Source of the DNA: Pseudovirgaria hyperparasitica
Lineage: Eukaryota
Assembly (NCBI GenBank): GCA_010093815.1
Contig: ML996579.1
Strand: one strand, 5' to 3'
DNA: 64,000 nt
Of this stretch, positions 20,946-41,004 are shown piece by piece. The stretch's first letter is position 1; each line of letters begins with the position of its first letter. The notes under the pieces are model-generated. The model worked only from the letters and a program-made list of their open reading frames with translations. It ran no database searches and was not told where the DNA came from. The position numbers were made by a program, and so were the translations under genes.

Positions 20946-22571
20946 ATGCTTCCAAGCAGAGGGTTAAGACCCGTGTTGACACACGCGCGATTGCAATTGA
21001 GATCTTCCGTGATACGTCAAAAAAAGGTACGTTCCGCACTGCACCAAGCCGAACTCGTCGTCGAACCTTTGGCGACCATCTGACTTGTAACTTGACTTTT
21101 ACTGATGGCCACTGTTGTAGTTTTCAACCTCTCCCTCAATATCTTCTCCCGTCCCGCGATGGCGCTCCCCGCAATCCTTTTCACGAATCTACGCGCAGAC
21201 GAGACCTAGCCTGGCCTGCTCTTCGGTCACAGCATCGCTACATGCACCGCGCTTCTACTCGTCCGAAGCACCACTGGACCCTTCCACGACCGCATCTGCA
21301 AATACTGCCGCAACGGGCGCTCCGACCTCGATTCCGTACGACTCGGCGCTGCCTCAATATGAAGAGCTTAAGAATCTGGACTTTGCATTCGGTGCCAACG
21401 AGCAGAACATGGGCTACTTGAAGGACTTGGGCCTGGACTTTGGGTGGGGACCGACGTCGGTGATGCAGTATCTGCTTGAGGTGTGCCACACCGGCATGAA
21501 CGGTCTGATGCCGATGCCATCATGGTGGGTGGCCATTGCCATGGTCGCAGTGATTGTGCGCGTGGGCATAACACCGCTGTACAAGTCGACGGTAAACCAG
21601 GCGGCGCGAATGAGGGCGCTAGTTCCGGTCACGGCGCCCCTCCGGGAAGAGATGCAAGCAGCGTCCAACGCAGGCGAAATGGCGAGATACAGGCAGCTCG
21701 CTGCGCAGCTTAGCGACGTCTACAAACGTTCCGGGGCGCTGCCCAGTCCCGCCTCGTTCCTGCCAGTATTCATCCAGGGCGTCTGTGGCTATGGCATGTG
21801 GAAGCTGCTGCGCAACATGGCCCAGCTGCCCGTGCCGAGCATGCTTGACGGCGGCTTCGGATGGATCTCCAACCTGGCCGTCGCCGACCCGTACTTTATC
21901 CTCCCCATCGCAACATCCCTGATCATGCACGTGTCCGCAAAGGTGAGTCGCCCTGGATTCCACACACTCTCTGCCTTTGCAATCTGACAGCAGCCACACA
22001 GCGCGGCAACGACAGCGGCCAGCCCCCGCCCGAGGGCTGGCAACGGAACCTCATGCTCTACTGGCTGCCCGGCCTCTCCGCCGTCATCACCTCCTTTCTC
22101 CCCGCCGGCGCCCAGCTGTACTTTGCCATCAACACGATCCTGATGCGCGTGCAGGGCGAACTGCTCCGCTTCAACGGCTTCCGCAGAATGCTTGGCGTCG
22201 AACCCTTGTACGACCTCCCGCCGCCCCCTGCGTCGTCATCATCATCATCGCCCAAACCCTCAGATAGCACTGCCGGCAGCATGAGATACCAGAAACCAAA
22301 CCGCACAATCGACACCAAGCTCACAACCACCAAGCTCGGCAAGACCGCCGCCCCCGTCCAAAAGGACGAGCCGGAGGCGAAGAAGTGGTATAAGCCCTGG
22401 ACGTACGATAATTTTCAGAGCAGCAGGGCGTCTTCGGCCGCGGCGGACGGCGAGGATGCTGAGGAGAGGTATCGGGCGCGAGCGCGGGCGTATGAGACGC
22501 AGCGGCAGGCGGATGTTAAGGCGAGGAAGGAGGAGGCGAGGGCGGAGAGGGAGAGGAGGTTGAGGGGGTAG
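20946..22571 (+). CDS. OXA1: Mitochondrial inner-membrane insertase Oxa1 (YidC/Oxa1 family), 2 introns
   Basis: Basic presequence MLPSRGLR, then GYLKDLGLDFGWGPTS, WWVAIA..IVR, GGFGWISNLAVADPYFILP and PAGAQLYF, with a basic C-terminal tail. Confidence 0.9.
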
Positions 22572-22727
22572 ATGGGGGTGGGATGTGTCTTTTGAGAGAC
22601 TTGGGGAGGGGGGAGATGGGGGGTGGATGTATCTTTTGAGAGACTTGGGGAGGGGGGTTGTGTAATTGTGTGTGTATGTATGTATGTATATATTGAAAGA
22701 GGTTGCGCTGTGCTGTCATGTAAACTC

Positions 22728-22730
<3 letters not shown>

Positions 22731-22786
<56 letters not shown>
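22731..22786. repeat. (GT)28 microsatellite
   Basis: Perfect dinucleotide run read directly from the sequence. Confidence 0.97.
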
Positions 22787-22788
<2 letters not shown>

Positions 22789-22805
22789 CGTACCGTATCG
22801 TATCG

Positions 22806-22983
22806 CATCTAGCATCCAGCATCCAGCATCTATCATCCAATCTAACATCTAGCATCTAATCTAGCATCTAATCTAGCATCTAATCTAGCATCTAATCTAG
22901 CATCTAGCATCTAATCTAGCATTTAATCCAGCATCTAATCCAGCATCGAATCCAGCATCTAATCCAGCATCTAATCTAGCATC
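22806..22983. repeat. Minisatellite of 12-bp ATCTAATCTAGC units mixed with 7-bp ATC(T/C)AGC units
   Basis: About ten tandem 12-mers with variants are visible directly. Confidence 0.92.
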
Positions 22984-23119
22984 AAGTCCCATCATACACC
23001 ACCAAACAGGCAAACACATTCAAGAAAGCCCATCCATGCACACACCTCTCCCTCTCCCCCTCCCTACCCCCCTCTACAAAATCCCCCAACCAACCCAACC
23101 CAACCCTCCAAACAAACAA

Positions 23120-24755
23120 TCACACATCACCCCACCGCCCATCAACCCCACAATCCCCATCCCCATCCCTCTCACCCACACCAACCCCAACACCCCTCTG
23201 CACCCGCAACCTCCCATCCCCATGCTCATACATGCCCAACTCCAACACATCCCCGCGCGGATCCCACGTGCGTCTGATATCCATCTCCATCTCCCTTGCC
23301 CTCCCCCTGTCCCTCCCTCCAGTCCCCTGACCACTACCAGTATACGCAGCACGCCCCGCACCCCAATCCCCAACATCAACAAAATCAAGACTAAGCACGG
23401 CATTTTCGACGCCTGCGTAGAGGGATAGCGGGGATGATAAGGATGAGGACGAGGAAGGGGAGGAAAAGGAGGACGAGGAGGAAAAGGATGAGGGCAGACA
23501 GAGGGCGTAGACGGGAGAGTCGCGTGTGCGGCGGTGGCGGGGGGTGCGGTTTGTTGTGCGGTGTGTGTTTGTGCGGTGTGTGTTTGGGGAGTATGTGGTG
23601 GTGGTGGTGGTGTTGTTGTTGTTCCGGGGATTGGCGAAGAGGGTGTATGGTTTACTTCCAAACTCACTCCCACTTGCATACCCACTGCTAGACCCACCCG
23701 CAGAAGCAGAAGCAGACCCAGCATCCCCATCCCCATCCCCGCCAGACCCAGAAGCACCCGCAGAAGCAGCAGCAGAGAGATAAGAATACGCCCGCCCGCC
23801 CGACACCCGTAGATCGAAAAACCTAAGCATGGAGTGGCGCGCACAGCCCGCGACGAGGCGAGGGCGTAGACGGGGGAGGAGTCGTGCGGGTCGGTGTAGG
23901 TTGATACGTGTTGGTGTGGGGAGCGGGTGTCGTGGAGGCTGTTTTTGGGGGGTTAGATGGTTGTTAAAAGGGGGGGAGGGGGGATGGGGGAACGAACCGA
24001 ACCACCCCATCATAGCACCCAGAAAGAAACACCTCACCAGCCACAGCATGCCCCGCAGCGCAGGACATACCAGGAAGCGGAATAACAGGATACACAGACG
24101 TTGCTTTACCTCTACTATAGAGCAGCACAGAGGAGGCATCATCCTCATCCCCGTCAGCATGAAAGGCATATTTGCGCAGGGGCACAGGGTGGAAACCAGT
24201 AGGCGTGACGGCGTAGATATGCAGGGGCTCCGTCGAGACACCGAGGCCGACGGCAACGCGGGTAGGCGAGAGGAAGGTTGACGACCAGATGCGGCGGTTG
24301 CGGGTGTTTGGCGGGAGGATGTCGAGGGTGTGGTTGGGGGGGATTGGGTGGGGTGTGCTGTTGTTGCTGCTGTTGCTGTTGTTGTTCGGAAGCGGGTACA
24401 GAGCGAGGCAGGAGTCGGATAGACCAGCGACGACAAGCTCGTTTGATATATCGGAGCTCCGGACATGACGGGCTCGGGTCTCGAAGAGTGCGTCCTGCCG
24501 GACTTGGATCCGGATCCGGGGTTCGCTGGGTGTCGTGCGCAGCAGGCTGAGATACCCCTGTGGTGTGCCGATGAGGATTCTGTCCTCGGCAGACACCTCC
24601 AACGACCTAACAACCTTCAACGTCGTAATGTCGTCTCTGCCCTCCTGACTTCCCTCCCGCCGCCACGTAAACCAATTCACTTTACGCCCGTACACGTCAA
24701 CCTCCCCTTCCTCTTCCTCTTCACCACCACCACAACCACCACAACCACCCCCCCC

Positions 24756-24799
<44 letters not shown>

Positions 24800-25265
24800 A
24801 CCCACAAACCCATCCACACAAGGCCGAAACCCCATCGTCTGTTCGCCCACCCTCCCCGTCACACCACCATCCACACCACCACCACCCCCCCCCAACCGGC
24901 CGAACATACCTAGCCACAAACGCCCGTCGGTCCCAACACCGCGACAAACCAGTCAGACAGCGCGCTGCTGCCTCGGCGTCGCACGGAGACAGCGGTTCGA
25001 CAGCAAGCGAGGGAAAGCGCGCCCGCAAAAAGACGCGCCACCCTTCTTCGCGGGCGAAGGTGTGGAGGGTGGAGCAGGTTTGGGATAGGCGGGCGAGGGC
25101 TTGGGCGGTGGGGAGGTGGGTGGTGATTTGGATGAGGAGTTCGGGGGGGAGGGAATGGAGGGAGGGGGGTGTGGGTGGTGCTGTGGGTGGTGCTGTGGGT
25201 GGTGCTGCTGTGGGATTGGGCTTTCTGGGGGGTGGTGGTGGTGGTTGGGGGTCTTTGGGTTGCAT
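23120..25265 (-). CDS. F-box protein with probable C-terminal beta-propeller/WD40-like region; frame uncertain across homopolymer tracts
   Basis: F-box LHSLPPELLIQITTHLPTAQALARLSQTC, followed by WDRRAFVAR, GRDDITTL, FLSGCYDGVVR, an intron near 23990, LRFFDLR and LYAGVENAVL. Confidence 0.75.
24758..24799. repeat. Poly-C tract of about 42 nt (poly-G on the coding strand)
   Basis: Homopolymer read directly; it lies inside the F-box gene. Confidence 0.95.
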
Positions 25266-26171
25266 TTTTGGGATTTGTTGTGGTGTTGTGGGTTTCTTAT
25301 CACTTACGGGGGGGGGGGGGGTTGGTCTTATAGAAGGTTTTATAGAGTTTGGGGGAAAGATGTCGGTGGGTTGTGGAATGACGTCGCTCCGAGTCCCGAT
25401 GGGTGGAGGCTGAGTCATATATGCGCGCACAAGCCTTGGAGAGTTATAGTCTTGAATATTCGAGTCATACATACATCCTACGTGCAAGTGACAAAGTGAC
25501 TCAACATGCGTTGTTCGATTAGGCTGTTGAGAAATCTCGGCTCTCGAGTCAGCGCCGCATGTGTACCTGGTGCAGATCATGAGCTTGTTGTCAGCAAATC
25601 CACCAGATCCCGGGTAGAACGTAGAGCAGGTCAGAGTCGTCATATCTATTACAATCGCACGTCTACTACAATCGCCCAACAACCAATACCTCTATGCAAA
25701 AAAGCCCCGAGTCTTCACTCTGTCCAGGCCCCCCATCATACATGACTAGACATGTGTGGCATACAACAAGCTGCTGCTGCAACTCCTCTCTCCGCCGTTC
25801 GTTCGTTCGGGACAAGTTCCAGCTCCGTCTTCATTACTGTATACTCTCTCAAGCAACTTTTGTTGGTACAACAGGCGTGATAAATCGCCGTGACAATGAG
25901 CGCCATCGTCGACGAGGATGACGACGACGAGCCTCGGGGTATATGAACATGGGCTTTCCGCTCTCCCCCCTTCTGCCATTCAAATCCGTGCGATGCAACC
26001 GGTCATTTGGAACAAACGAAAGAGAGACAGACGATGCGGCGATGTCAAAACGCCTTGAAACTGCTGCTGACAGAGACGCCCAAGAACAACAAGCAAAAAC
26101 AAAGCGCCACGCTCACTATACAAACATGAGAAAAGTCCCGAGATCGAAAAAAAAAAAAAAAAAAAAGAGAA

Positions 26172-29105
26172 TCAGACCCTCCCCTTCTTTGCACTGCCGC
26201 CCAAGTCATAGTCTCTCCATCCGCCCAGGCTGCCCCACGCCGCAAGCACGTCCTCGCTCACGCTACACCGCGTGTCTACGGTCGGGGCCAGACTTTCGCG
26301 GTTCACGTTGCGGAACATCTTGCTCTCGCGCCGCACACTCGACCGGCTGCCCGCGCTCCTTCCACTAAGCGTGGATGCGTTTGTGCGCCGCGAGGCCGTG
26401 CGGACGGGGATGGCATGGAGATCGAGGGCATGGTCCAGTGAGCACTCGCGCAAAGCTGTTGGAGGTGCTCCTCCGCCTCCTCCGCCTCCTCCGCCTCCGC
26501 GACCTGGCATGCCGAGGGTGGACTGGCTGCCTTTCTCGGAAAGGCCAACCAGGGAGACGCGGTTGGTGCTGGAGACAGGAGATATAAAATCGACGACGGA
26601 ATGGGCGGGAATGACGCTGTCGTCATCGCCGCTGAGACTGGGCTCGCTGTTGGCAACTTTGACGCGAAGATCGTCGTCGTCCGTGGTGCCAGGGGTGGCG
26701 GGCGAAGGGAGTGGCGAGGGGGCAGAGATGCTCGCCGAGGCAATGCTTCCAGTGTTGGACGGGGATGGGAGGGGTTGGTGGTGGTGGTGGTGGTCGAGTT
26801 GGGCGGCATAAGACGGGGCAGTAGCCGGGCGGGCGTCGCTGGTGACGGCGTCTCGCCAGGTGTGGGAGCAGTTCTTGGGGCCGCCACTGGAGGCAACAGG
26901 GACGGGGTTTTGGCCAAGTGCGCCACTACGAAGAATGTCGGAGCTACTGACCCTACTCGAGGTTATGATGCGCGATGGGCGATGCTTATCGGTCTGCGGT
27001 AGGGGCACTCGATCACGAGGGGGCGATGGAGTGGCAGCGTCGGAGAAGAAGGTGGATGTTATGGGTGTAGGGGCAGCTGGGAAGGCGTTGATCATCTCAG
27101 TCGAAGGAGAGACTGCTTGAGAAACGGCAGAGGTACCGGTGGTATCAGTCGTCTTATCAGCGAGTAGTTGTTGTTCGTCTGTCGGCTTGTCATCCGAGGC
27201 GTCTTGTCGAGAATATCTGCCCATGCCAATCGCCGTTTGGAAGCCTTGACTGAAGCTCTGCTTGGCCATTGCAGCTCGCTTCTGGCGCATCATTTCGAGC
27301 AAAGCCTCTTCTTCTTCGGTGACAGCCATCAACTTGTGGCCATCACGTGATCGTGTTTCACTCTTTGCCGATTTGCTGCTACGGATACTTTCTGACTCTG
27401 CACGCAGTCCTTCCGTCTCGGTCGTCATGTCAAGTCCCGAGGTTCGAGGACGGGCCCTGTCGTCGCGGGTGGAAGAGGATTCGTGCCGCGAGACACTCCT
27501 GCTTCTTGATGGGAGGAGGTCAGCGCGGCGTGAGGAGGCATGGTCGGTTTGCGGTAGCGGCAGCGATGGTGCCGGCGCGTACACCATCTGTATCGTACCA
27601 GCTTTACTGGAAGACGTAGTCCGAGCACTGACGTTGCTCCGGTTTGAAGGGTGTCTCAAAGCACCGGGTGTCACCTCATAAGCATGCGCTTTCCCTATGA
27701 TGATCTCGCCTTCAGCACTGGACATGAGACTTTCCCTGACCGGAATCTGCACAGGGGTCGGAAGAGGAACGGCAGCGGACGCGGTGTCTTCTCCGTTGTC
27801 GCCTTCTGATGATGACATGGACAGGGCGCTTGTCGTTCTCAAGTCCAGTTGGGCCATGCGGCTTTCTTTGGTCCTGGCAGAAGCAGCTTCAGTCAGATTA
27901 CTAGTGACCGAATAGGCGCTCGACTTGCGAGAGGGATATGCGGGTCTCTGCTGCTGAGTGGGAGAGATGATGTCTGAAGGAGCCGGCTCTTTCCGCGCAA
28001 GATCTTGGTTACCAGACATTTGATACTTTTCCCACTGCAAGGCTTGACCATTGACCAAGACTTTGCCCAAAGAGCTCTTGCGCCTCGGCAGCTTGATCGG
28101 CACTTGTTCGGTAGGGGTTGGTGTGTCGGCAGTGTCGTCTTCGTCACTCGACAGGGCGTCGAACCAGTGCTGGACGCCCTTGGGAGGTCTCCTGACATTT
28201 GTCTTGGCACGCTCCAGTGGATCTGCCGAGCGAATGTTTGGTGATGGTTGGCGGAGAGAGCTGTCGGTCGAGGCTTGGCTTCGAATGGATTTGGTGTATT
28301 GATTTTGGCCCCGAGCAAAGTATTCGGACGAGAGGGAGATTTGTGAGGGAGAGTTTACAAACTTGTTCGGTGAGAGGAGACCATTGTGGTCATGCTGATG
28401 GGCCCTGGGTCTGGGAAAGAGCTTGGACAGGTCCAGCCTGGATGGCTTGCGTGACGACTTTTCTTTCCGTGATTTTGATGCTGTAGAAGCAGATGTTGTT
28501 GATTTCGAGTCCTCATCCGCGGTCGAGATGTGCACAGGGGTATATCCTTTCCTCAGGGCCATGTCTCTCACAGCCGAGTTGGACGTCTGCTGCGAAACGG
28601 AGAGGGGTATCCGTTTGGAGTCGTAGTAGGAACGGATTGTCGAAGAGGAGTTCTTGTGCGAGACATGATGGAGGGTGGAAGTAGTGACTGAGGATATGGC
28701 AGAGTAGTCTTCGATACCAAGGGCATTGGAGGAAGCGCGAGAGCCAGTCGGGGGACGCAGACTGCCGAGTTGAGGGGGCAGAACCAGTCGTTCGGTCGAG
28801 TCGTAGGGTGTTGCTTCGGGCTCATACGAGAGGTCGGCAGTGGTGGCAGGTATAGGTAGGTTGGGTGCAAGTCGTCTGCTGTTGTTGTGGTGGTGGTGGT
28901 GGTGTGAGGGTGTGGCGGTGTGCAATGGAGCCGGCGAGGAAGTTGGAGTGGTGACGGGCAGACGTGCATGACCCAGCAGCCTCTCTGCCTTTGAATTGCT
29001 TATGGAGCCATCTATCCGCACGATTGGGACCCTCTCTTCGGTGACGAGATTGGATGAAGCATTGCTCTTGCGCCGAGTGAAACCGAATCTTGAGCTTCGT
29101 CCCAT
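26172..29105 (-). CDS. Ser/Pro-rich, probably largely disordered protein of unknown function (977 aa, single exon)
   Basis: Uninterrupted 2.9-kb ORF with short ordered-looking islands (RLDLSKLF, KGVQHWFD, HKLMAVTEEEEALLEMMRQKR, SVSEDVLAAWGSLGG). Confidence 0.85.
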   Translation of the reverse strand: MGRSSRFGFTRRKSNASSNLVTEERVPIVRIDGSISNSKAERLLGHARLPVTTPTSSPAPLHTATPSHHHHHHNNSRRLAPNLPIPATTADLSYEPEATPYDSTERLVLPPQLGSLRPPTGSRASSNALGIEDYSAISSVTTSTLHHVSHKNSSSTIRSYYDSKRIPLSVSQQTSNSAVRDMALRKGYTPVHISTADEDSKSTTSASTASKSRKEKSSRKPSRLDLSKLFPRPRAHQHDHNGLLSPNKFVNSPSQISLSSEYFARGQNQYTKSIRSQASTDSSLRQPSPNIRSADPLERAKTNVRRPPKGVQHWFDALSSDEDDTADTPTPTEQVPIKLPRRKSSLGKVLVNGQALQWEKYQMSGNQDLARKEPAPSDIISPTQQQRPAYPSRKSSAYSVTSNLTEAASARTKESRMAQLDLRTTSALSMSSSEGDNGEDTASAAVPLPTPVQIPVRESLMSSAEGEIIIGKAHAYEVTPGALRHPSNRSNVSARTTSSSKAGTIQMVYAPAPSLPLPQTDHASSRRADLLPSRSRSVSRHESSSTRDDRARPRTSGLDMTTETEGLRAESESIRSSKSAKSETRSRDGHKLMAVTEEEEALLEMMRQKRAAMAKQSFSQGFQTAIGMGRYSRQDASDDKPTDEQQLLADKTTDTTGTSAVSQAVSPSTEMINAFPAAPTPITSTFFSDAATPSPPRDRVPLPQTDKHRPSRIITSSRVSSSDILRSGALGQNPVPVASSGGPKNCSHTWRDAVTSDARPATAPSYAAQLDHHHHHQPLPSPSNTGSIASASISAPSPLPSPATPGTTDDDDLRVKVANSEPSLSGDDDSVIPAHSVVDFISPVSSTNRVSLVGLSEKGSQSTLGMPGRGGGGGGGGGGAPPTALRECSLDHALDLHAIPVRTASRRTNASTLSGRSAGSRSSVRRESKMFRNVNRESLAPTVDTRCSVSEDVLAAWGSLGGWRDYDLGGSAKKGRV

Positions 29106-29639
29106 TGTAGGTGCATGTCAAGACGACCCACAGGCGGGTATGTAGGCGTCGGTCGGAGGATTGATGTGACAAGAGGGAGTTTGGAGGAGTGGTCTCGTTT
29201 CGCGGAGGTGCTGGCTGCAGGGACGAAGAGTCGGCAGGTCGAGAGGGTATGGAGGAATTGAAAGTGGAAGATCTAGAGGCCAGCTCGCATGATGGAAGAA
29301 GGGTAATGGTAAGTAGGAGAGGGAAGCGAGGTATTACAGAAGAGGCGAGACCGCAGGGAGGATGGAGGGGTGGAGGAATGACGGTCCCAGAGGAGTAGTC
29401 GAGCGCACATCCAAAGTCCGGTAGGGGTGGTGGAGCGAAGAAGGGGATTTACGGCGAGATATGAGGCGACAGGGGGAGACCACGGCCGCGGAGGGGGGAG
29501 GAGAGGGATTATACAGGGAGTTGTAGGAGCGGTAGTAGTAGTAGAAGAAGAAGAAGGGAATAGAATGTGGGGAGGAGGTTGTAGATGTAGATGCAGTTGG
29601 CTGTAGTAGCTATAGGAGGAGGAGTAGTATTAGTGGTAG

Positions 29640-29640
<1 letters not shown>

Positions 29641-29689
<49 letters not shown>

Positions 29690-29703
29690 AGTAGTAGTAG
29701 TAG
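29641..29703. repeat. (AGT)n microsatellite
   Basis: About 20 units with one interruption. Confidence 0.95.
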
Positions 29704-29968
29704 AGAGAAGGGCGTCAGGAAGTCAAGGGTGTGGTGGCGTAGTTTTGACAGGTCAGGACCGACAGACAGGTCAATGGACAGCGAGCAATTGGCATGGGAT
29801 TATAATATTAGAAAAAGCGACAGGACGAAGGATGCAAGAGAAGGAAAGGAAGTGATGGAATTGAGTGAAAGAGTAATTATGGGATGTATGGTGGGTGGTA
29901 TGCTGCCTGTTCCCTGTCGGACTCTTGACTCTTGGCCAGCAGCGTAGGTGAAGGGGGGGGCCTAGCTG

Positions 29969-29995
29969 GCAGCAGCAGCAGCAGCAGCAGCAGCA
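29969..29995. repeat. (GCA)9 microsatellite
   Basis: Read directly. Confidence 0.9.
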
Positions 29996-30919
29996 CAGTC
30001 CAGCGTGCGGCCAGGCTATCAATCCTCCCGCCAAAAGCAGAGGAAGAAGAAAGACAGTAACTAATTATTAGAATCATGTTCGATTATGATGATGGTTGTT
30101 GTTGTTGTCTTGGTTGTGTGTAGGGCGTCAGGGAGGGGAATGACATGCAGCAAGCTAATAGAAGTGTAGAGCAGTCTGTCCGTCGGGTGTGACTCCGGTG
30201 CGTGTGTGTGCCTGTCCTGTGCCTCGACTACATGCTACATGCTACTACTGTAGGCTGTCTGCACGATGCAGGTTGCATGCACTGCCATGCAGCAGCACGG
30301 AGAGTATCAGGCATTCATTAATTGATCAATCAATCAAGAAGAAGACAAGCCAGACGAGAGAGAGAGACACACACACACACACACAGACAGACAGAAAGGA
30401 ATGGGAATTGGGATGTGCGACTAGGTTTGTTAGGGAGGGGGGGGACACGGGCACTGGCGAGGCTCCTGTTCAGTGATAGTGATCAGTGATGTGTGTGTGT
30501 GTGTGCGTCAGTCATCCTGGAGTTGTGGTGGTGGTGACAGTGACAGTGACGGCTATTAAGCCGACTATTGAGGTGGAGTCAGGGCAAGTCAGGGCAAGTC
30601 AGGGCAACGTGGGCGGTCGACGGCGCGAGAATGGGCGGGTGGGTCAGCAAGAATAGGCTGCTGCTTGGCTGCTGCTTGGCTGCTACTAGGCTGCCACTAC
30701 CGGATCTGTCCCCCTAAGCTCAAGGTCGAGGCTCAGAGCTAAGAAAAAGGCTTAAAGAAGGGCCTGCACCCCTCCCCTAGAAAACACAGACGAGTTTGGC
30801 TCTCTCTCCAGTCTCCAGGGCTGACAATGTGTCATGGTCCACCGCCAATTCTGTAGGGGGCCATCCATGCTGCTAATTACATACACTATACATCCATGCT
30901 GACCACAAACTTGTCGACG

Positions 30920-30921
<2 letters not shown>

Positions 30922-30956
<35 letters not shown>
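30922..30956. repeat. (GA)n microsatellite
   Basis: Read directly. Confidence 0.95.
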
Positions 30957-30959
<3 letters not shown>

Positions 30960-33118
30960 CTGAGAAAGAGGTATTGCTTCCTGTGCGCAAGTCCAAGACT
31001 GCGCGATGAGACACAGGAAAACTCCGTTGTGTGGAGATTAGACTGCAGAATCGAGCAATCCAGCGTCACACGATTCTCCATCTTCACTTTACTCACTCAA
31101 TCAGCCTTGCGCCATCCATCAATCCACATGGCCATGGACAGAGCAACAGGAGAGACAGACAGCCAGACAGCCAGACAGACAGCCTACAGGGATCCCGCTG
31201 AGCCCGCAGCCCTAACCAACCCTCCCTACCTACACTACTACATGCCACACACAACGCCAATAATTATGTGCATGAACCCAACAACCTAATCAATCTCTCA
31301 ACTCTCTAAACTGATACTGTCATACCTTCTTAAAACTTGCACTTCTCCTCCGAATTAATCAATCGCCTTTTTGTTTGCCCTTCTTCGCTAATTACCTGCC
31401 TCGGTCTGCGTGCATAGGTAGGGGGGTCTACAGTACTGATCTCTCTCATTTCAACCGTGGGCGCGTGCGTATATACCACTATCACTACACCACCGACAAC
31501 CCAGCATCTCAATCCATCGCCCGTCCCTCTAGCTTCACCCAGCACCACCTAATAATTACCTACTCCGCCAGTTCTACAAATCAGGCAAAAAAGAAAAACA
31601 ATAAAATAAAATAAAAACCGGGGAGGGGTCCTCTAGATCTCCTGAACCATCTGATCTTTCGCGAGAGATCAGGGTCAAGACTCTCAAGACGCCCATCCCT
31701 GGCTTCTGCTTTTCTTCGCGTGTGTCGGTGCTCTATCTTAGATGATGATGGGACGATGGAAGATCCACCAGGCCAAAAGTCGCCGATGAACTCCTTGAAA
31801 GGTAAAATAGAATATTCATCGTCGTTGGTATTAATTGGTGACAAGTCTTGGTCCTTTGCTTAATCATAGTAGCGTCGAAACTTGGTCCCAGGAATAATTA
31901 ATCGTAGACTCCACGCACACTGCACACCTCCTATCCTATCATGTCCGAATCCGGTTGGTCTACGGGTCCTGCCCCTTACCTACTTACCACCTCGCTCCGC
32001 CATCTCCACGCCACCCGTCCGTCAAACAACTACAATACACGGCACCTCTCCCTTAATACGTCCTGCGCGTTTCAATAGGAAATAGTGCTGGCTGGACACT
32101 AAGATCAGATTCTAGATTCACCCCCTCTTCGGCACTAATTAAATCAGCTACAGCTTAGGCTACCTGGGTTGTTGGTTAGTAGTAGGCTCAGGCTCAGGCT
32201 CAGGCTCCGGCACCACGCATTATTGACAGACCCGCCCGGCTGCATGCTGTCGCGTGCGCAAGCCTCCCTCGCCGGCACGCGATGAATACACTTTGCTCTC
32301 TTTGCACGACACACTCTTGCACGACACTCTCTTGCACGACAATGCTCGGTTGAAACGTGCGTGTCTTGCATGCAATTTCGCTGCCTCAACACGTTTCGCG
32401 AGTTGGTTGGATTTGGTTAGAGCATCACCTTACTGTCTTCAAGCCGCACGTCCCCATTGGCATGTTTGCTGCTGTATGCAGGTGATTGCTGACCCATACA
32501 GACAGCCCTGTCGTCGGAAACATGCAACACCGCATCAAGCAAAAAGCATTTCAATCCTCAACGGGTGCTGCTTGTGCTACTATTTCGAGCTCGCCGTCTC
32601 TATATTTGGCTGTGCTTACTTAACTCGTCCTATGCATGAACGGACCCCAACGATCGACCGCCAGCCAGCAACATGGAGCTGTTGAGCAGCCCACAGCAGT
32701 CAACCTCAATCAGAGTCCCGTACACCGTATCCTCCGGCAGATCGTGTCGTCGTATCTATATTTTTCGTAATTGCTGCCTCGACTTCAGCGCGAAGGATCG
32801 CACGTGTGATGGGACCTGGGGCGGGCTGCCAGACAGAGGTATCAGTCCTACGCAGCCCAGTCGTTGAGGTACCGCTATTTCTGTCCCCACCGCGGATCTG
32901 CGCGTGACGTCGTGCTGAATCCTTCGCAACTGTTGCAACCACCAAACTTTGGTAGCAACTCACTTCAATACACTTTGCCACGCCCACGCCTGAACCCATC
33001 TCCCTATGCCTTCTTCACTTGCCGACTTCTCTTACAACAAACAAACCCAATTGTCGTCTCGATACTGCCACCTGGTACACCTTTCCTTCCCCCGGCCTTC
33101 TCCAATCCAACCGCAAGC

Positions 33119-34634
33119 ATGGAAGCACTACACCCGTCCCGCGAATCAATGGAGCTCGCGGAGCCACCGAAGCCTTCTCCGTTCTTGGCACTCCCGGGCG
33201 AGATTCGAAACTCCATCTACGATTACGCGGCCGACTGGAACGACGTTGGACGAACCATTGAACGCATCCATCGTCAGGTACAGCAGAAACTCAACCATCG
33301 GACCCCCAAAGGTCCCGCCATCTACGACAAGGAAGTGTGGGATGCCGTCGTTGCCCAGGCGTCGCCAAAGCGGACTCCAACCATCTTCTTGCTGAACCGT
33401 CGGACTTATGCCGAAGCACGTGCTCGACTGGAGAAGAAGCCATTGCTGTTGCCTGCCTTGCTGCCCAGGTGTGTCGTTCTCCTGTGGAGGAGCAATCGTC
33501 GTGGGAACGGCCAGGACTATCAGAATACAAAATGGTGCCTCGAGAATCTGATCTCGACCGCGACGCTGCAGTCCGTTCCTGATCTTACCGTCACGGTACA
33601 GCCGTTCATCGACTTTTTGATTCCGTCGGGATATCTGCCATGGCCGGAGCGGTCATGGCACTGGCCACTCGCTCCGTTCAGCAACATCAATGAGGACAAT
33701 CTGCTGGCGTGGGAGACCAGACACTTGACAGTCGTGTTCCCAAGAGCGTATCCGGTCAACTACTTGCAGAGCACTATTCGTGAGGTGGGTCTTTTTATTT
33801 TCAGGTTCGGTCACGATTGAATGATGGAAGCCTACTCGAACATCACACATCCGAGACCCGAGACTCGGTCGAGACGCCTTTGATATCTCAACATGCTGAT
33901 ACCCAGACCAGATCGAGCGAACTCTTCTCCCTTCAGCCCGGCTCACGATATGCCTCTCTCTCCCCGACACAACCGGATGGTCAATCCTGCCACGGTCTTC
34001 AATCCCGATCAATTCCCGTTCACACTCCCACCTAGGCCTCCCCTCGAGCGCCCAAAAGCGTGCCCTCGCAATGCCACCGCCAGTCCCCCGACCCTACGTC
34101 TCCCCCCTCCGCATCGCCCTCACAACGGCCGCATTCTACCTCCTCCCCCTCGTCCTAGTCGCCGCCCTCACCGCCATCCTCCCACCCTCAATCCGCAGCT
34201 CGCTCTCCCCCAGTCTGCAAACCTGGTCCCTCGCCTTCACCGCACGCATCTCCTTCCGCCTCTTCCTCTACGACCTCATGACCACCTTTGACATCCTCCT
34301 CTCGCCGCACCCGCACCCGCACGCCCCGCTCTGGTCCTGGTCCGCCCTGACCCGCGCCCAGCTCAGCCCGCTGTACTATCCCCTGCTGTACGCCTCCCAA
34401 CTCGTCCGCCCGTTCCGCGTCAGTCCCGTGAGCAAGATGGCCCTGGGCGTGGTGTTTTTGTACGGTGGTACCTGGCACACGCCGGGGGATTGGCAGCAGG
34501 GTGTGGCGTTTGTGAGTGGCGGGTGGACGTTTTGGGCGTGTACGCTGGCGAGCTTTGGATGGCGCTATTGGCAGGAGAGTGTGCTGGACTTGGGCGCGTT
34601 CTTTCCGGGGAGGAGGCTGTGGATTGGGATTTGA
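33119..34634 (+). CDS. Hypothetical protein with N-terminal F-box-like motif and C-terminal hydrophobic (membrane) segments; 1 predicted intron at about 33785-33911
   Basis: SPFLALPGEIRNSIYDYA and PTIFLLNRRTYAEA are present. Splicing gtgggt...gctgatacccagaccag joins this ORF in frame to ORF 34071-34634, which has stretches such as IALTTAAFYLLPLVLVAALTAIL. Confidence 0.65.
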
Positions 34635-34930
34635 CCTGATGCGGGGGGGGATGCATCACTGTAGAAGAATGGGAACGAGAGCGTGGAGATGGGAAGGGAG
34701 ATGGACATGTACATGTATATGTAGCCGACCTATCGTGCACAGCAGATAGATTAAACAAAACGCCACACTCTTGTAGCGTGAGCCATGCTACGTGCACTAG
34801 TATCACTCAGAACACACGAACCAAGTGTCTGCCAGCTCTCCGTCTACCCAAATGCATCTCATCTCTCAACTCCCTCTCCAACATGCACGCACGTCCGGGA
34901 TCAGCGAGTATTTTGTTCCGCGGGACGAAA

Positions 34931-34968
34931 AAGAAGAAGAAGAAGAAGAAGAAGAAGAAGAAGAAGAA
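34931..34968. repeat. (AAG)12 microsatellite
   Basis: Read directly. Confidence 0.93.
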
Positions 34969-35415
34969 TGTTACTCTTTTTGCTATGGAAAGAAGATAGG
35001 ACTATTCACTATTCTTATACCGTTTCTTCCTTGTAGCGTCTTATATATAAACTACAAGTAGCTATATATGTTTAATGTAAGCGTGTGAGTTATTATAGGT
35101 TGCTAGGAAAGAAAGAGATGGTACACGTCCGAGGGGTCCATCGATAGGGAGGCACTAAGACTGCCTAGCTTTAGGCAACCAGCGGATCCATCTTACCATC
35201 GGATGGAATAGGAGTACTACCGCCGTTTCCCCGGTGTTGTGCTGTGCCAGATGGATCTCGGATGGCTCTGAGTCCGGGCGCACCGCTACGGTAACTAACG
35301 TCACTTCACAAGCACAAGTGCTACATGAACGTTTACTAAAGACGGCGCTCATCATGAATCCCCTCACAGCCCTCCCAAGTTCCCTCCATCTCCAGCATCC
35401 CAAAAATCACAAGAT

Positions 35416-37210
35416 ATGGATACTGTCAAGACGTGGGCCGCGACCGACGGCTCCGTGAAAGCTGCCGTGCTCGTCGCTCTCATCCTACTCTCCACACTAG
35501 CAACATATCTACTCCAGCAACCAGGCTTCCCGGAGAATGCTCCGAAACTCCATCATGAGGACCGCTGGGTGGTCGGCACGCGGGCGTACTTTAGCAAGCG
35601 CTGGGACTTTTTCAGAGACGCGGCGGCCCGGAGCGCCACGGGGATGTGGTCCTTCCATGTTGGCCGGCTTCCCATCATCGGGCTCAGCGGTCCCGAGGGC
35701 CGGAAGGTGTTTTTCGAGAGCAAGCAGCTGGACATGAGCAAAGGGTGCGTATCATATCACCCCGACAGTAAATCCTGAACTCATCTTTTGACAACCTCCA
35801 CCCCCCAGATACGCCGTCCTCTTCGGCCAATCCCCCGACGTCGACCCCATGGCCCCCGACGACAAAGACCCAAGCAAACAATCAAACTACATCCTCACCA
35901 CCCTAACCCGCCTCCTCAAGCGCGAAAACATGCCCTCCCTCCTCGCCCGCATCCTCAAAGACGTCCGCGCCAACCTCTCCACCCTCGCCACCACCACCCC
36001 CTCTTCATCCCCCCAAACAATCGACCCCTTCGCCACCATCTACGCCCACATCGCCCAACTCACAACCCGCACCTTCGCCTGCGACGCCCTCGCCGACAAC
36101 CCCACCAACCTCGCCTCCATCCTCTCCAACTTCGCCGCAATCGACAAATCCGCCACCCCTCTCACAATGATGTACCCGCGCATCCCCACCCGCGCCTCCA
36201 TCTCCCGCTTCCTCGCCGGCATCCGCCTCTACAGACTCATCGACGCCGTCGCCCGCGCCCGCATCGCCTCCTCCGGCCTCCGCCCCAACGACCCCCTCCA
36301 ATCCCTCCTCGACCAGGGCCACACAGCAGATAAAATCGTCGGCTTCGTCGTCAGCGCCCTCTTCGCGGGGATGGTTAATACGGGGCTTAATACCGCCTGG
36401 ACGCTCTGCTATCTTGCCTTGGATCCGGTCTGGTTGGCTCGTGCGCGCGAGGAAGTGCGCGGTGCGCTTGATAGGCATGTTCCGGAGGCGGAGGTGCCGG
36501 GGCGGAGACAGAGGACGCTGGACAGGATATGCGGGGTTCCGCTTCAGGCTTGGGAGGCGGAGTTTCCGGTCTTGGAGTGGTGTGTTCGGGATACGATGCG
36601 GATTCATATGCAGGGTGCGGCGCTGAGGGCGAATTTCTCGGGCAGGGAGGTGGGGTTGGGGAGGGGGGAGGTGGTGCCTGATCGGACGTTTGTGGTGAGT
36701 TTTGTCTTGTCGTGTTGGCATGTTGGACGGGGTATCAGGCGAGGGGAAGGGAAGGGAAAGGAGAGGAAGAAAGGAAGACGTGCTAAACGGTCTACTAGGT
36801 CTACCATACAGCCGACATCCACCTCGACGAATCCGTATACCCGGACCCGCTCCGCTGGGACCCGGGACGCTATATGCCTGAGCGTGCCGAGGACAGGGGT
36901 GCGCATCTTGCGTTTTTGGGCTGGGGCGCGGCGCGGCATCCGTGTTTGGGGAAGGCGGTATGTGTATACTCCCCAGATCCACCTATTCACAAACCACGAA
37001 CACAAACTAATAACAAAACAACAGTTCGCAAAACTCGAAATGACAACCACCCTCGCTGCCTTCATCACGCTGTTCGACTTTTCCCTCGTGGATTTGAAAG
37101 GGGAGCCGTTGGCACGTTTGCCGGCGCCGGATCGCAATCAGTGGCAGATTGAGGGGCCGCGGGGGCCGGTGCGGATGAGGGTTGGGCGGAGGGAGGGGGT
37201 TGTTTTTTAG
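35416..37210 (+). CDS. Cytochrome P450, 3 introns
   Basis: N-terminal membrane anchor, I-helix ALFAGMVNTG, K-helix CVRDTMR, YPDPLRWDPGRY and the heme motif FLGWGAARHPCLG. Confidence 0.9.
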
Positions 37211-37860
37211 GGTGCGTTTAGGGTTGGGGTTTGGGAGGGGGGTTTGGGGAGGAGGAGGAGAGGAGGAGAAGAGAGAGGGGATGGGATGGGGAAGATTAGG
37301 GGGATGGGGAAGATTAGGGGGGAGGACGATCACGCATCGCAGACCGTGGCAGGATATCATGAATACATCAACACCCAACACTCAGCTCCATATAGTAACT
37401 CAGATACGAGATCGATGAATGGACGGTAGTTATGTAGGTACAAGAATAACACAAAAAGAAAACAAAAAAAAACCGGAACTTTCGCATCTCCACAGCCCCG
37501 GATCTCCACTCCATCCCGGTGCGCGGCATACGTCACACGTCATACGGATATACATTATATCACACACCCCAGCCCCAACCACCCAATCCACCTTCCGGGA
37601 AATCTCCAATCACGCCAGCCTCTCTTGAGGTACTGTACTGTATACTGTCTGTCGTTGCAATGGATAGATACTGCCCCCGTGCGTGTGTGTACGTAGCACG
37701 GTATAATTAACTGGCTGCGAGGAATCGCCATGGCACACACAGCATGATAACTTTATGATACTGCGCCCCTGGCTACGGGACAGGAGTGGCTTGGCGAAGT
37801 AGAGTGTAGTATAGTAGGGAAGAGTGTGGGATGGGATGGGATGGGGTGTGTTGAGAGGGT

Positions 37861-37990
37861 ATGGAGTGTATTGAGAGGGAATGGAATGTATTAAGATGGA
37901 ATGGAATGTATTAAGATGGAATGGAATATATTGAGCGAGAATGGAATGTATCGAAATAGAATGGAATAGGATGGAATGTATTGAAAGGCA
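37861..37990. repeat. 20-bp period minisatellite (ATGGAATGTATTAAGATGGA consensus)
   Basis: About six degenerate copies are visible directly. Confidence 0.85.
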
Positions 37991-38819
37991 ATGGCACGGC
38001 ACGAAATGGATCCCCACCCTCAATTCCCCATCCCGCACCCCCCCCATAAACTCCGAATTCCGCATTCCGCAATTCCGAACCCAATCCGTCCGCCACCCGA
38101 CCAACCAACCAACCACCTTGCTAATTGACCGATTGCGCGCGAGGAAATCTGATACTCCGTTGGTTATTCACATTCATTTGCTCGATGATCTGGCTTGAGG
38201 GTGATTCTAGAGTGTCTGGTGGGGATGTGGATGTGATGGGGATGGATGGATGTATGTATGTATGCTTGGGGAGTTGTGTGAGGTGTTGATTGAGTGAGTG
38301 GCTGGGTTAATTATGGGCGTGTGTGGTGTGGTTTGTGGTAATGGAATAGTATAGATGACGTCCCTTCTTCGGGGGAAACGGGATTATATGTAACATGACG
38401 TGTTTGTATTATTCTTTATTCGCCTGATGATATGGTGTTGCGGCGTTGTCTATATCCCGGTGTTGTTATGTTGTTGTGTTTATATCGTCCTGCTTTCATC
38501 CTACACCCGCCCTCTATTCTCCTCTATTGCCATCATGTCTCCCTCCATGCCCGTCGTTCGTCTCGGAGATATATCCCGGAGACAGAGGGGGCTGGAGTAC
38601 ATGGCTCCATGCATGACGCATGAGAAGAGGCGGGTTCGGGTGTTTTGCAGAGAGAGAGAGGGAGAGAGACGCCGTGTGGGCTCGTATATAGCCTTCCTGG
38701 ATCCTGCGTGGGTATTGTTTCTGTATCTACTACATCTTCTGTTCATACACACATACAACCACCACCACAACACTCACCAACCACCAACCAACAAACCCAG
38801 AAAACCCAACAAACCCAAA

Positions 38820-39905
38820 ATGAAATCCCCCTCCCCACTCCCATCCCTCCTCACCCTCACCATCTCCCTCACCCTCACCACCATCCCCCTCGCCACCGCA
38901 GACAAAGACTGGACCTGGACCGAATCCTGCGCCGTAAGTCCCTCTTTTCCTCCTCACTCCCACCCTTATCCCTTCCCCGCTCCTCCCCCCCCATTTCCCC
39001 TCCCCCTTTCCCTCCCCTCATCCCCCCCCTCAACACAATCTAACACCCCCCAAGTCCCCCTGCGCCCCCGACTTCTCCCAAACCAACATCCGCGCCCTCT
39101 GCGCCGACCCCCCCGCCCTCTCCTCCGTCTCCGCCTGCATCGCCAGCGCCCCCGCATGCGCCAGTCCCACCGACGCGCGCGACAAGGTCCGTCAGAGCGT
39201 CGCGTCGCTTTGTGGTGATGTTACGGCTACGTCTGTCTCTACTGCCAAGCCGTCTAGTACTCAACCTGGCGAAGATGGTGATGATGGTGATGGTGATGGT
39301 GATAATGGTGATGATGGTGAAAGCTGGGGCAACAACGGGCCCTGGACAGGCAAAGACGGGCCGCACATGACGGCGGGTGGAGGAGGGCCGTTTGGCGGTG
39401 GGTGGGGGCCGTGGGCGCATTCGGGGGCGGGGTGGATGAGTGATGGGGCAGCTCAGGGAGCGTGGACGCGGTGGTGGGAGAATGGGGATTGTCCTGCTTC
39501 GGAGTGGGCGGGGTGGACGAGTGGGAGTTGGAGTCGGGAGGCTGTGAGTATTTTACTTTTTTTTGCCTTTCTTTTGTTCGCTTTGGGTTTGCTCACTTCC
39601 CCCTTTGTTCTGTGTGTCATGGAAGGTGTTGGTACTGACAGCCACAGGACTGGACGACGTGGAGCGGGTGTAGTGCGACGACGACGGCGACGGTGGTGAC
39701 TACCACGGTGAGCGGGACGGAGAGCGTGTATACGAGTCTGGAGACGCGGGTTGCGCAGGTGACGGGCGGGGCGGTGCAGACTGGTGGTGGTGATGGGAGT
39801 GCGCCGGGTTCTGGGGCTGGGAGCGTGGGGACGGCGATTAGTAGGGAGATGGTTGGGTTTGGGGTGGCTTTTGCTGCTGTGTTTGGTATTATGGTTGCGC
39901 TTTGA
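38820..39905 (+). CDS. Secreted, probably GPI-anchored cell-surface protein (Cys-rich N-domain, GD-repeat linker, Trp-rich domain); 2 introns
   Basis: Signal peptide MKSPSPLPSLLTLTISLTLTTIPLATA. Introns at about 38934-39054 and 39544-39647 give a continuous frame. A Thr-rich stalk precedes the hydrophobic C-terminus VGFGVAFAAVFGIMVAL*. Confidence 0.8.
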
Positions 39906-40144
39906 TGGGTGATTGGGTGATTGATATATGTATGATGCTGAGTCGGATTGGGGATCTCTCCGACGTCTTCAATGAGGAATTTGTGACTGCGATTGTAGAA
40001 TAGTGGAACGGTGGACCGCGAAGTTGTTCGGCTGTTGAAAGGATTCGTCATTCGAAGATGGTTGACTGGTTCTATTGTGTGCTTCGAGGCAACGGATATT
40101 TAGATAATGTACAACATCCAACCACTCACAATCCCCACCAATCG

Positions 40145-41004
40145 CTACGTAAATACAGATCGTTGTGACGGACTGCCTCTGCCCCTTTCGTACAGCCACT
40201 TGTTGTTCAGGCCCACGCTCGCGGGCTTACTGGCCGACGCTGGTGTCGGCGTGGGTGGAGTGCTCCCGCCAAAGCTCGTGGTCGAGTCCATAAAGTGACT
40301 AACCGCCAGTGGGCTTTGTGATCCGTAGCTCAGTCTTCGGGTTGCGTCCTCGCCAGTCCGACGCTTCAACAAAGGACTGGAATCCCGCTTGAGCGGCGAT
40401 GGAGAGAAAGAGTTGCTCTCTTGCCCACGGCCTGCGAGGGGCGACGAGTTCGCCGACCGCGCAGTGCCAGGCTGAGCCCTGACGCTGCTCCCAAGGCTAG
40501 ACGCGCTTCGAGGTGTCGATCTAGCGTATCGTGGTGGAGTTATGTATTGCGAGCCCGGCGTCAAAGGTGCGTTCGAAGGAGGAAGTCCGAGCAGGGCGCG
40601 CTGGGACGGAGTGAGCGGTATGTCGGAGAGGTCGTCGGCCTTTGTGTAGAGCGGCTTCAACGCATAGATAGCATTGCCTAGAAACACAGCTCTGACCGCC
40701 CAATACAAGTAGCCAAGCTTGGTGCTGGACGCAGGGAAAAGGTTGAATCTAGGCGCCTGTCAATACTCGTGCTGGCAGAAAGCAGCTCTTGGACATCGTA
40801 CATGAACGGTATGAAGCGATACAAGATGTGTGGAACGACAAAGGTCGAGATGAAGGCGAGAGCATTCCACACAATGGCGTGTACGTTCTGTTCGTTGAAC
40901 GTCTTTGCGCCGATGCGCTTGTTGATCTCGTCAAGCCGGGGATGCCGCCATGCTCCCGTAGGTGTAGCCGAGGCGGCTTTCGGGGTTGCAGGTGCAGAAG
41001 CCAT
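40145..41004 (-). CDS. POM34: Nuclear pore membrane protein, Pom34/NPCC family; 1 intron
   Basis: TPTGAWRHPRLDEI, two hydrophobic segments, DDLSDIPLTPSQRALLGL and NNKWLYE. Confidence 0.82.

Follow-up and report, generated by a model that had tools for sequence, protein, structure and literature searches.

A domain of about 18 kb in the genome of Pseudovirgaria hyperparasitica is built of alternating blocks that, on the + strand, are strongly C/A-rich or strongly G/T-rich and nearly devoid of G or of C. It occupies positions 21990-39920 of the 64,000-nucleotide stretch of contig ML996579.1 (assembly GCA_010093815.1) that we analyzed, hereafter the window, and takes in six genes: exon 2 of a gene for an Oxa1-type insertase, an F-box gene ('gene B'), a long serine-rich open reading frame (ORF; 'gene E'), a cytochrome P450 gene and two further genes ('gene C' and 'gene D'). 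Because the bias is strongest at four-fold degenerate sites, turns over in steps in the middle of exons and has drawn the amino acids of the P450 away from those of 33 homologues, it is the product of mutation or of biased conversion and not of selection on the protein or on codon translation. A preliminary description of this DNA had proposed a local strand-asymmetric mutational process in place of protein selection; widened to admit conversion, that proposal is borne out by four-fold and two-fold sites, introns, intergenic DNA and amino-acid drift. Judged from the sequences compared, the skew arose in the lineage of P. hyperparasitica. The explanation that we favour, with a probability of roughly 45%, is that the domain is an extreme, block-wise and local form of the gene-polar strand asymmetry of fungal genes, tied to transcription-linked exposure of single strands.

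Extent, composition and borders of the skewed domain

Applied to the + strand, a three-state hidden Markov model (HMM), with emissions chosen by us and not fitted to the data, called 33 skewed blocks of 64-615 bp each at 22214-39953. Skewed blocks cover 7,612 of 17,445 bases inside 21990-39920, compared with 1,156 of 42,370 bases, in six blocks only, outside the domain. The absolute GC skew exceeds 0.5 in 21.6% of 200-bp windows of the domain and in 0.17% and 0.66% of those in the two flanks, which are thus more balanced, as had been noted before; no 200-bp window exceeded this value in 50 shuffles of the region. Across the domain, GC skew in 300-bp windows ranges from -0.82 to +0.73, and GC content is 0.558 vs 0.503 outside. 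Six block pairs named in the preliminary description have the composition ascribed to them there, with GC skews of -0.30 to -0.76 in the C/A members and +0.44 to +0.79 in the G/T members. When each was set against about 2000 flank windows of the same length, in which the largest absolute GC skew was 0.37-0.46, 11 of the 12 blocks lay beyond the flank maximum, the exception being 21990-22360 (-0.30). The contrast is mainly one of C against G: the strong part of the C/A versus G/T skew first described holds, whereas its A/T part is weaker. GC skew and AT skew are negatively correlated in the domain (r = -0.31, p = 0.003, 89 windows) and show r = +0.05 in the 231 windows outside.

Blocks cover 52% of the coding DNA and 34% of the non-coding DNA. 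Those in non-coding DNA are the more skewed, with GC skews of -0.77 (C/A) and +0.72 (G/T) and the rare base at 3-7%. Simple sequence is also concentrated here: the domain holds 33 of the 35 rows returned by Tandem Repeats Finder (by our own count, 22 arrays out of 24 distinct ones), and its direct-repeat families are skewed triplet-like motifs. All 30 G-quadruplex motifs of the window fall in the domain and none outside.

The borders of the blocks are sharp. In exon 2 of the P450 gene, codons 1-185 end almost exclusively in C, with some A, and codons from 186 onwards almost exclusively in G or T; the G/T share of third positions passes from 0.05 to 0.85 at a step fitted to exon codon 185 (position 36365 of the window), beside the point near 36367 at which a flip of synonymous codons had been reported. 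Third positions in the first half of this exon comprise 121 C and 6 G. A linear gradient fits the exon worse than the step by 40 log-likelihood units, and a logistic transition at least 20 codons wide costs 6 units. Further switches were fitted at 39181 in gene D (width about 3 codons), at about 22368 in Oxa1 exon 2, where C at third positions turns to G and T, and at 34398 in gene C, where the transition is broader. In all four exons the step is better than the linear gradient, by 5.7-40 log-likelihood units, and in three of the four the width is at most about 12 codons. Both the step fits and the third-position counts in exon halves are independent of the HMM.

The letters themselves are well supported. 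On 21050-41000, no differing letters and no insertions or deletions were listed, where there was coverage, in the DNA contigs of X1 or the spliced contigs of X3 and X4; X1 is possibly the source sample, and the independent runs are X3 and X4 only, from another sample, which are treated as spliced contigs since they carry GT..AG joints. The match of the domain with public DNA and spliced contigs shows that the skew is no assembly artefact, homopolymer and microsatellite tracts excepted: at such tracts, poly-C for example, the public contigs break and the tract lengths are unconfirmed. Seven introns of the domain are confirmed by the spliced contigs of X3 and X4.

Synonymous sites, protein change and implied substitutions

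Four-fold degenerate sites show the strongest bias, and two-fold sites, introns and intergenic DNA carry it as well; the skew therefore persists at synonymous sites, where the preliminary description had asked for it to be sought. We counted site classes in all supported coding segments, 655 codons in sense-C/A blocks and 355 in sense-G/T blocks. The blocks had been called in part from these very third positions, so that the counts are conditioned on the calls; at four-fold sites they give C 0.66, A 0.13, G 0.11 and T 0.10 in sense-C/A blocks and G 0.65, T 0.19, C 0.11 and A 0.04 in sense-G/T blocks. Two-fold pyrimidine sites carry C at 0.90 in sense-C/A blocks and T at 0.78 in sense-G/T blocks, and two-fold purine sites carry A at 0.58 and G at 0.92, respectively. 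The two block types are thus roughly mirror images. As purines occupy 0.24 of the four-fold sites in C/A blocks and 0.69 of those in G/T blocks, transitions alone are insufficient to account for the difference. The simplest description of these compositions would be that, in each block, one strand gained G from C and A, and T from C.

Protein sequence has moved in the same direction. The P450 product is 100% identical to P0001, the NCBI protein of P. hyperparasitica (Dothideomycetes, Acrospermales), and was compared with 33 full-length homologues that are at most 41% identical to it. Its amino-acid index in the C/A block is -0.26 vs -0.04 (standard deviation, sd, 0.08) in the homologues, and in the G/T blocks it is +0.29 vs +0.01 (sd 0.11) and +0.20 vs -0.35 (sd 0.21). 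First- and second-position differences were inferred against the closest P450 homologue, P0002 (56-58% identical). In the G/T block, 27 of them run from A or C to G or T and 6 in reverse (p = 3e-4); G is gained 25 times there and lost twice. In the C/A block, C is gained 32 times and lost 10 times, and the keto/amino balance (23 vs 28) is not significant. Where columns have a majority consensus, 15 keto-to-amino changes vs 4 in reverse are counted in the C/A block, and 7 vs 7 in the G/T block.

Arrangement relative to genes and its explanation

The six genes and the 33 blocks called by the HMM are as follows; block types are those of the + strand.

21121..22571, + strand: Oxa1-type insertase gene (Pfam 60KD_IMP); intron 21943-22001 from spliced contigs
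22214..22359, +: C/A block in Oxa1 exon 2
22442..22785, +: G/T block over the end of the Oxa1 coding sequence and its 3' flank, including (TG)28
23120..25272 (approximate ends), - strand: F-box gene, gene B; intron 23939-23997 from spliced contigs
22988-23413 C/A, 23414-23653 G/T, 23654-23759 C/A, 23855-23990 G/T: gene B blocks 1-4
23991-24054 C/A, 24260-24418 G/T, 24594-24950 C/A, 25052-25376 G/T: gene B blocks 5-8
26172..29117, - strand: gene E, long serine-rich ORF of 2.9 kb, on a single contig with no joint
26683-26880, 27017-27090, 28599-28958: G/T blocks (on the + strand) in gene E
29133-29747, 30398-30643, +: G/T blocks in the 5' flank of gene E, the left half of a divergent spacer
31203-31311, 31476-31569, 31968-32052, 32956-33140, +: C/A blocks upstream of and within the 5' part of gene C
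32408..34919, + strand: gene C, on one transcript contig; 127-bp GT..AG intron 33785-33911
33922..34427, +: C/A block at the start of gene C exon 2
34428..34704, +: G/T block over the end of gene C exon 2 and the start of the 3' flank
35416..37210, + strand: cytochrome P450 gene; exons 35416-35745, 35810-36694, 36799-36957 and 37025-37207, with all three introns confirmed by spliced contigs
35792..36314, +: C/A block in P450 exon 2
36427..36766, +: G/T block over the remainder of P450 exon 2 and most of intron 2
36896-36965 G/T; 36966-37087 C/A (intron 3 and start of exon 4); 37088-37325 G/T (exon 4 and 3' flank): short blocks at the 3' end of the P450 gene
37561-37624 C/A, 37777-37994 G/T, 37995-38117 C/A, 38192-38344 G/T: four alternating blocks in the spacer between P450 and gene D
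38821..39905, + strand: gene D, with a signal-peptide-like start; intron 38934-39054 from spliced contigs
38744..39171, +: C/A block over the 5' flank, exon 1, intron 1 and start of exon 2 of gene D
39268-39548, 39659-39953, +: G/T blocks in the remainder of gene D

A C/A block followed by a G/T block is its own reverse complement. Independence of gene orientation is therefore automatic, and only the location of the switches is informative; the earlier remark that the blocks occur whatever the gene orientation holds as a description but is uninformative. By location, 9 of the 11 C/A-to-G/T switches in the HMM list fall in coding exons, whereas the 10 G/T-to-C/A switches comprise five in intergenic DNA, two in introns, one in mixed sequence and two in exons of gene B (Fisher p = 0.009-0.03, depending on how the mixed switch is treated). 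Five of the six genes open with a sense-C/A block and close with a sense-G/T block, and in Oxa1, gene B, gene C, the P450 gene and gene D the terminal sense-G/T block extends beyond the stop codon. The 5' flank of gene E is sense-C-rich, its sense strand is mostly C-biased and makes a weak turn near the 3' end without a clear flip, and P450 exon 1 is weakly biased. Along the sense strand, third positions shift from C to G in 9 of 12 exons, significantly so in 8 individually, and none falls significantly. The first 90 nucleotides downstream of all seven RNA-supported introns of the domain are C-biased, and five of these introns are themselves sense-C-biased. The sign of the skew thus varies along a single transcribed strand, where strict adherence to that strand would have spoken against the mutational process first proposed.

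This arrangement resembles a known asymmetry of fungal genes. The accessible text of McLean and Tirosh (2011, BMC Genomics 12:638, PMC3315797) describes, for most unicellular fungi, a coding strand biased towards C at the 5' end and towards G at the 3' end, a skew that is found at four-fold sites and in amino-acid usage, reaches promoters and 3' untranslated regions, is gradual with intermediate values in mid-gene, is accompanied by a uniform AT skew positively correlated with GC skew, and is read there as mutational; C-skew near transcription starts of plants and fungi is likewise reported in the available part of Fujimori et al. (2005; PMC555766). The domain shares with the former pattern its sense-C 5' ends, its sense-G 3' ends running into the 3' flank, and its presence at four-fold sites and in amino-acid usage. 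It departs from that pattern in amplitude (C:G of 121:6 in third positions, compared with a modest genome-wide average), in its step-like borders where the published change is gradual, in restarting after introns with several cycles in the P450 gene and gene B, in the negative correlation of GC and AT skew, in a GC content that is raised and not lowered, and in being confined to 18 kb between near-balanced genes. These differences make it a variant of the published skew and not a plain member of the class. Our literature searches found no account of such block-wise skew in filamentous fungi or in P. hyperparasitica.

Under the explanation that we favour, C and A would have been depleted on one strand of each block in favour of G and, to some extent, T, by changes of the types C>G, A>G and C>T. 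Such a spectrum would arise from damage on an exposed single strand followed by copying by translesion synthesis. Rev1, which inserts C opposite abasic sites, would leave the same spectrum. The exposed strand would be the sense strand in 3' and pre-intron parts of genes and the template strand in promoter-proximal and post-intron parts; as the strand varies with the part of the gene, exposure would be linked to the stages through which transcription and RNA processing pass. High G+C content at third positions (GC3) and many tandem repeats would mark a regional factor that amplifies the process in these 18 kb. The opposite GC skews of the two ends of fungal genes have lacked an agreed cause since they were described, and their small average effect hampers tests of mechanism. 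Here, the polarity is saturated and its borders can be placed within a few codons, in single-copy expressed genes with known homologues, such that the locus gives precise landmarks for testing the mechanism and shows the extent to which local mutation bias moves protein sequence against purifying selection.

Several observations weigh against this explanation. The third-position trend of gene E, a single exon of 2.9 kb, is not monotonic, gene B has a sense G-to-C switch within continuous coding sequence, the spacer at 37561-38344 holds four alternating blocks, and the site-class counts carry the conditioning given above. To our knowledge, no transcription-linked process exposes the template strand at 5' ends. 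The housekeeping genes of the flanks, among them those for FGAR amidotransferase, Rrp15, SRP54, eIF4E, aminopeptidase I, a KDM5-type demethylase, a HORMA protein and Yju2, have balanced third positions, with GC3 of about 0.46-0.64, and polarity is not significant among the flank ORFs, of which 12 out of 20 rise in the 5'-to-3' direction (Wilcoxon p = 0.20); these genes are transcribed yet balanced, which means that transcription alone is insufficient and that a regional factor is needed. Furthermore, the published fungal pattern is gradual with positively correlated AT skew, whereas steps and r = -0.31 are found here.

Strand-switching hypermutation of the single-strand type, either a runaway through feedback between R-loops and the G-rich strand or a process anchored at break sites in introns and spacers, may instead have rewritten these gene-dense 18 kb, a reading that we regard as possible but doubtful. 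If true, it would make the domain a natural germ-line, kataegis-like mosaic in a fungus, with borders of one to a few codons, codon usage overridden and conserved residues replaced, and a magnified view of the process behind the 5'-C/3'-G skew of fungi. Strand-switching clusters of mutations around breaks were reportedly found in yeast and tumours by Roberts et al. in 2012. In the form anchored at breaks, recurrent (meiotic) double-strand breaks would fall at promoters, terminators and introns, the resected 3'-ended strand, that is the + strand to the left of a break and the - strand to its right, would lose C and A in error-prone fill-in, and biased gene conversion would raise GC. Polarity and spectrum fit those that the available text of Hinch et al. 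(2023, Science; PMC7615360) gives for human meiotic hotspots, namely C>N and A>N on the single-stranded strand, where C>G and A>G are put down to translesion synthesis, and peaks displaced from the centre, 700-800 bp away from the break. Here too, the strand taken as exposed would have lost C and A, with G/T to the left and C/A to the right, off-centre by hundreds of base pairs, and the two- and four-fold composition and the inferred amino-acid-changing substitutions would fit the C>N/A>N spectrum. Four spacers have neutral centres (22785-22988, 30643-31203, 34704-35792 and 38344-38744) with G/T 100-800 bp to the left and C/A equally far to the right, and 7 of the 10 G/T-to-C/A switches are intergenic or intronic, sequence classes which, together with promoters and terminators, are cut by SPO11-1 in Arabidopsis according to the accessible part of PMC5880243. 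Raised GC3 and 22 of 24 tandem arrays could also suit a recombination-hot, break-prone region. Against breaks stands the fact that G/T-to-C/A switches are inevitable in any alternating series, only their location being informative. The hotspots of Hinch et al. show an excess of rare mutations over 1-2 kb or more, with decay, whereas here base composition is saturated in blocks of 64-615 bp with step borders, many of them within exons; two opposed decays would cross gradually, but the mid-exon flips are steps of full amplitude. The 64-160 bp alternations in gene B exons and in the 37561-38344 spacer are far below known resection lengths, no non-coding site lies less than 1 kb to the right of the sense-C blocks of gene E at 26683-27090, and the C/A block 33922-34427 would require a break inside a 127-bp intron. 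Untranscribed spacers are less affected than genes, and no AT-rich dip marks the switches (mean -0.033 vs -0.042, p = 0.86 between switch types). Candida albicans is a yeast without regular meiosis. In the accessible text of PMC3315797, fungal gene polarity is strongest in C. albicans and weak in S. cerevisiae. Meiotic breaks would predict the reverse, and the available description of P. hyperparasitica places it among the hyphomycetes, an asexual form. Break resection would therefore be a possible but unlikely source of the skew, one that fits polarity and spectrum and that our analysis does not require.

In the runaway form, G-rich RNA, sense or antisense, would form R-loops or G-quadruplexes that keep the G-rich strand single-stranded, that strand would lose still more C and A, and small seeds, such as C-rich 5' leaders, pyrimidine-rich intron ends and skewed microsatellites, would grow to saturated blocks with sharp walls. 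This would explain the steps, the saturation, the multiple alternations in exon and spacer, the higher block coverage of transcribed DNA, the start of C/A blocks at intron 3' ends, the excess of tandem repeats and the restriction of G-quadruplex motifs to the domain. In mammals, Ginno et al. reportedly described GC skew with R-loops both at CpG-island promoters and where genes end (2012 and 2013); that skew is similar in its sharp switches tied to transcription units and in a G-rich non-template strand at 3' ends, but has the opposite sign at 5' ends, which are sense-C-rich here, and differs from blocks lying within coding exons. G-clusters are not favoured as such, runs of at least three G being fewer than in shuffles, the immunity of the flanks is left unexplained, and our literature searches found no documented runaway of this kind in a fungus; we regard this form as quite unlikely. 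Were either break scars or self-reinforcement true, a new route to fine-scale compositional structure in eukaryotic genomes would be at hand. We think it very unlikely that selection acted on a property of the nucleic acid, such as an unstructured, G-poor 5' RNA, avoidance of C that tunes polymerase speed, or R-loop-assisted termination at G-rich 3' ends: the pattern does track transcription units, and an adaptive avoidance of C has been put forward (in the accessible text of PMC3315797), but blocks are found as well in spacers that transcripts scarcely cover or do not cover, the 'termination-like' G-rich block of the P450 gene precedes the gene end by two exons, conserved amino acids are replaced at a cost without visible gain, and neighbouring genes manage without skew. 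Cryptic simplicity alone, with slippage expanding skewed short motifs in disordered segments and spacers and the sign of each block accidental, would account for the tandem arrays, the direct-repeat families of triplet-like motifs and the alignment of gene B blocks with low-complexity insertions relative to a Phyllosticta homologue. The blocks of the P450 gene, Oxa1 and gene C are, however, non-repetitive coding sequence in which synonymous codons alone flip, G runs are under-represented and block signs are non-random with respect to gene anatomy; the synonymous flips in the conserved P450 largely refute it as sole cause, leaving it highly improbable. A foreign or introgressed segment, from a genome with such composition throughout, would suit a contiguous domain with GC3 unlike its flanks. 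This origin is scarcely credible: the left border lies in or at the essential Oxa1 gene, whose exon 1 (21121-21942) already has a GC3 of 0.72 without skew, the rise in GC3, seen at 17713-18801 and in this exon, thus preceding the onset of skew; GC3 climbs gradually along the left flank toward the domain (0.46, 0.48, 0.64, 0.54, 0.72); weaker blocks of similar kind occur in flanking housekeeping genes; and we know of no donor genome of such composition.

A further comparison is offered by the keto/amino asymmetry of animal mitochondrial DNA (G+T vs A+C), which is attributed to deamination of the strand that is single-stranded during replication. There too, the changes of the exposed strand are C>T and A>G, and codon usage and amino-acid composition are overridden, but the asymmetry has one sign genome-wide, whereas here the sign switches every few hundred bases and a strong C<>G transversion pressure is also needed. 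Other candidates were tried and rejected. A skew jump at a replication origin, an alternative raised in the preliminary description, predicts one upward jump per replicon and domains of tens of kb, and is contradicted by 11 upward switches in 18 kb. Repeat-induced point mutation (RIP) in ascomycetes likewise leaves strand-coordinated transition tracts and switches the strand that is mutated, but it acts on repeated DNA, which becomes AT-rich and TpA-rich; here, GC is 0.58-0.60, the genes are single-copy in the window, and TpA/ApT (0.52-0.77) and (CpA+TpG)/(ApC+GpT) (1.09-1.14) reject RIP. A degenerate palindrome or fold-back duplication is not supported, since 13 of 16 block pairs lie within z of +/-1.6 of composition-matched shuffles and the three with z of about 3 reflect short motif matches. 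Pairing of the C/A half of an exon with its G/U half in an RNA hairpin was likewise rejected: P450 exon 2 folds at -311 kcal/mol vs -321 (sd 7) in shuffles (z = +1.37), 17 of 20 of which fold equally well or better. Growth of homopolymers or G-clusters by slippage in G runs is at odds with the 409 runs of at least three G observed, vs 462 (sd 12) in 300 shuffles. The 'GC skew' of a 2026 preprint on Top3 denotes a cleavage-site preference and is irrelevant here.

Individual genes, tandem arrays and flanking sequence

The one hit for gene B was a Phyllosticta F-box protein, 26% identical. Gene B blocks coincide with low-complexity stretches that stand in place of ordinary sequence of this homologue, each stretch consisting of amino acids permitted by the local base bias. 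The sense-G-rich segment 24600-24950 stands where the Phyllosticta protein has about 86 ordinary residues; RNA contigs over gene B stop at 24692, and the segment, which stays in frame and is free of stops, could be exon or intron. Within it, at 24748-24803, lies a tract of some 56 C, read as G on the sense strand, that is in frame without a stop and whose length is unconfirmed where the public contigs break.

The C/A blocks of 31203..33140 make up the right half of the divergent spacer between gene E and gene C together with the 5' part of gene C. Spliced contigs join the ORFs 32810-33820 and 33900-34634 as the two exons of gene C, for which no Pfam family was found and whose exon 2 resembles a multi-pass membrane segment. 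No Pfam family was found for gene D either. A second intron of gene D, at about 39546-39639, was placed from GT..AG alone. Its protein includes a segment with Cys, a middle part rich in Gly, Trp and Asp, and an end that is hydrophobic; to judge from these features the product may be a secreted or anchored wall protein; the richness in Gly and Trp may equally be mere local G/T bias. The RNA contig 39648-40748 spans the end of gene D (+ strand) and continues into a nucleoporin-complex gene (- strand), reflecting either overlapping 3' ends or two transcripts joined.

The tandem arrays within 22562-39320 include the following, the last of which sits within the blocks of the spacer between the P450 gene and gene D.

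22730-22786: (TG)28
22805-22983: 12-bp minisatellite
29603-29703: (GTA)33
30922-30956: (GA)17
34927-34968: (GAA)14
37835-37967: 20-bp minisatellite

Outside the domain, the HMM called weaker, isolated blocks.

9444-9669: polarity as in the domain
17658-17781: polarity as in the domain
18067-18323: polarity as in the domain
44149-44361: weaker isolated block
46106-46220: weaker isolated block
53196-53416: polarity as in the domain

Among the flanking genes, SRP54 has a sense-G block at its 3' end, aminopeptidase I is sense-G at the 3' end and sense-C upstream, and the ORF 52841-53509 has one sense-C block. To the right of the domain, GC3 is about 0.6 in the nucleoporin gene (40145-41022) and about 0.5 in the genes beyond. 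The right flank also holds an ORF with a HET (heterokaryon incompatibility) domain at 56210-58252, which is of ordinary composition.

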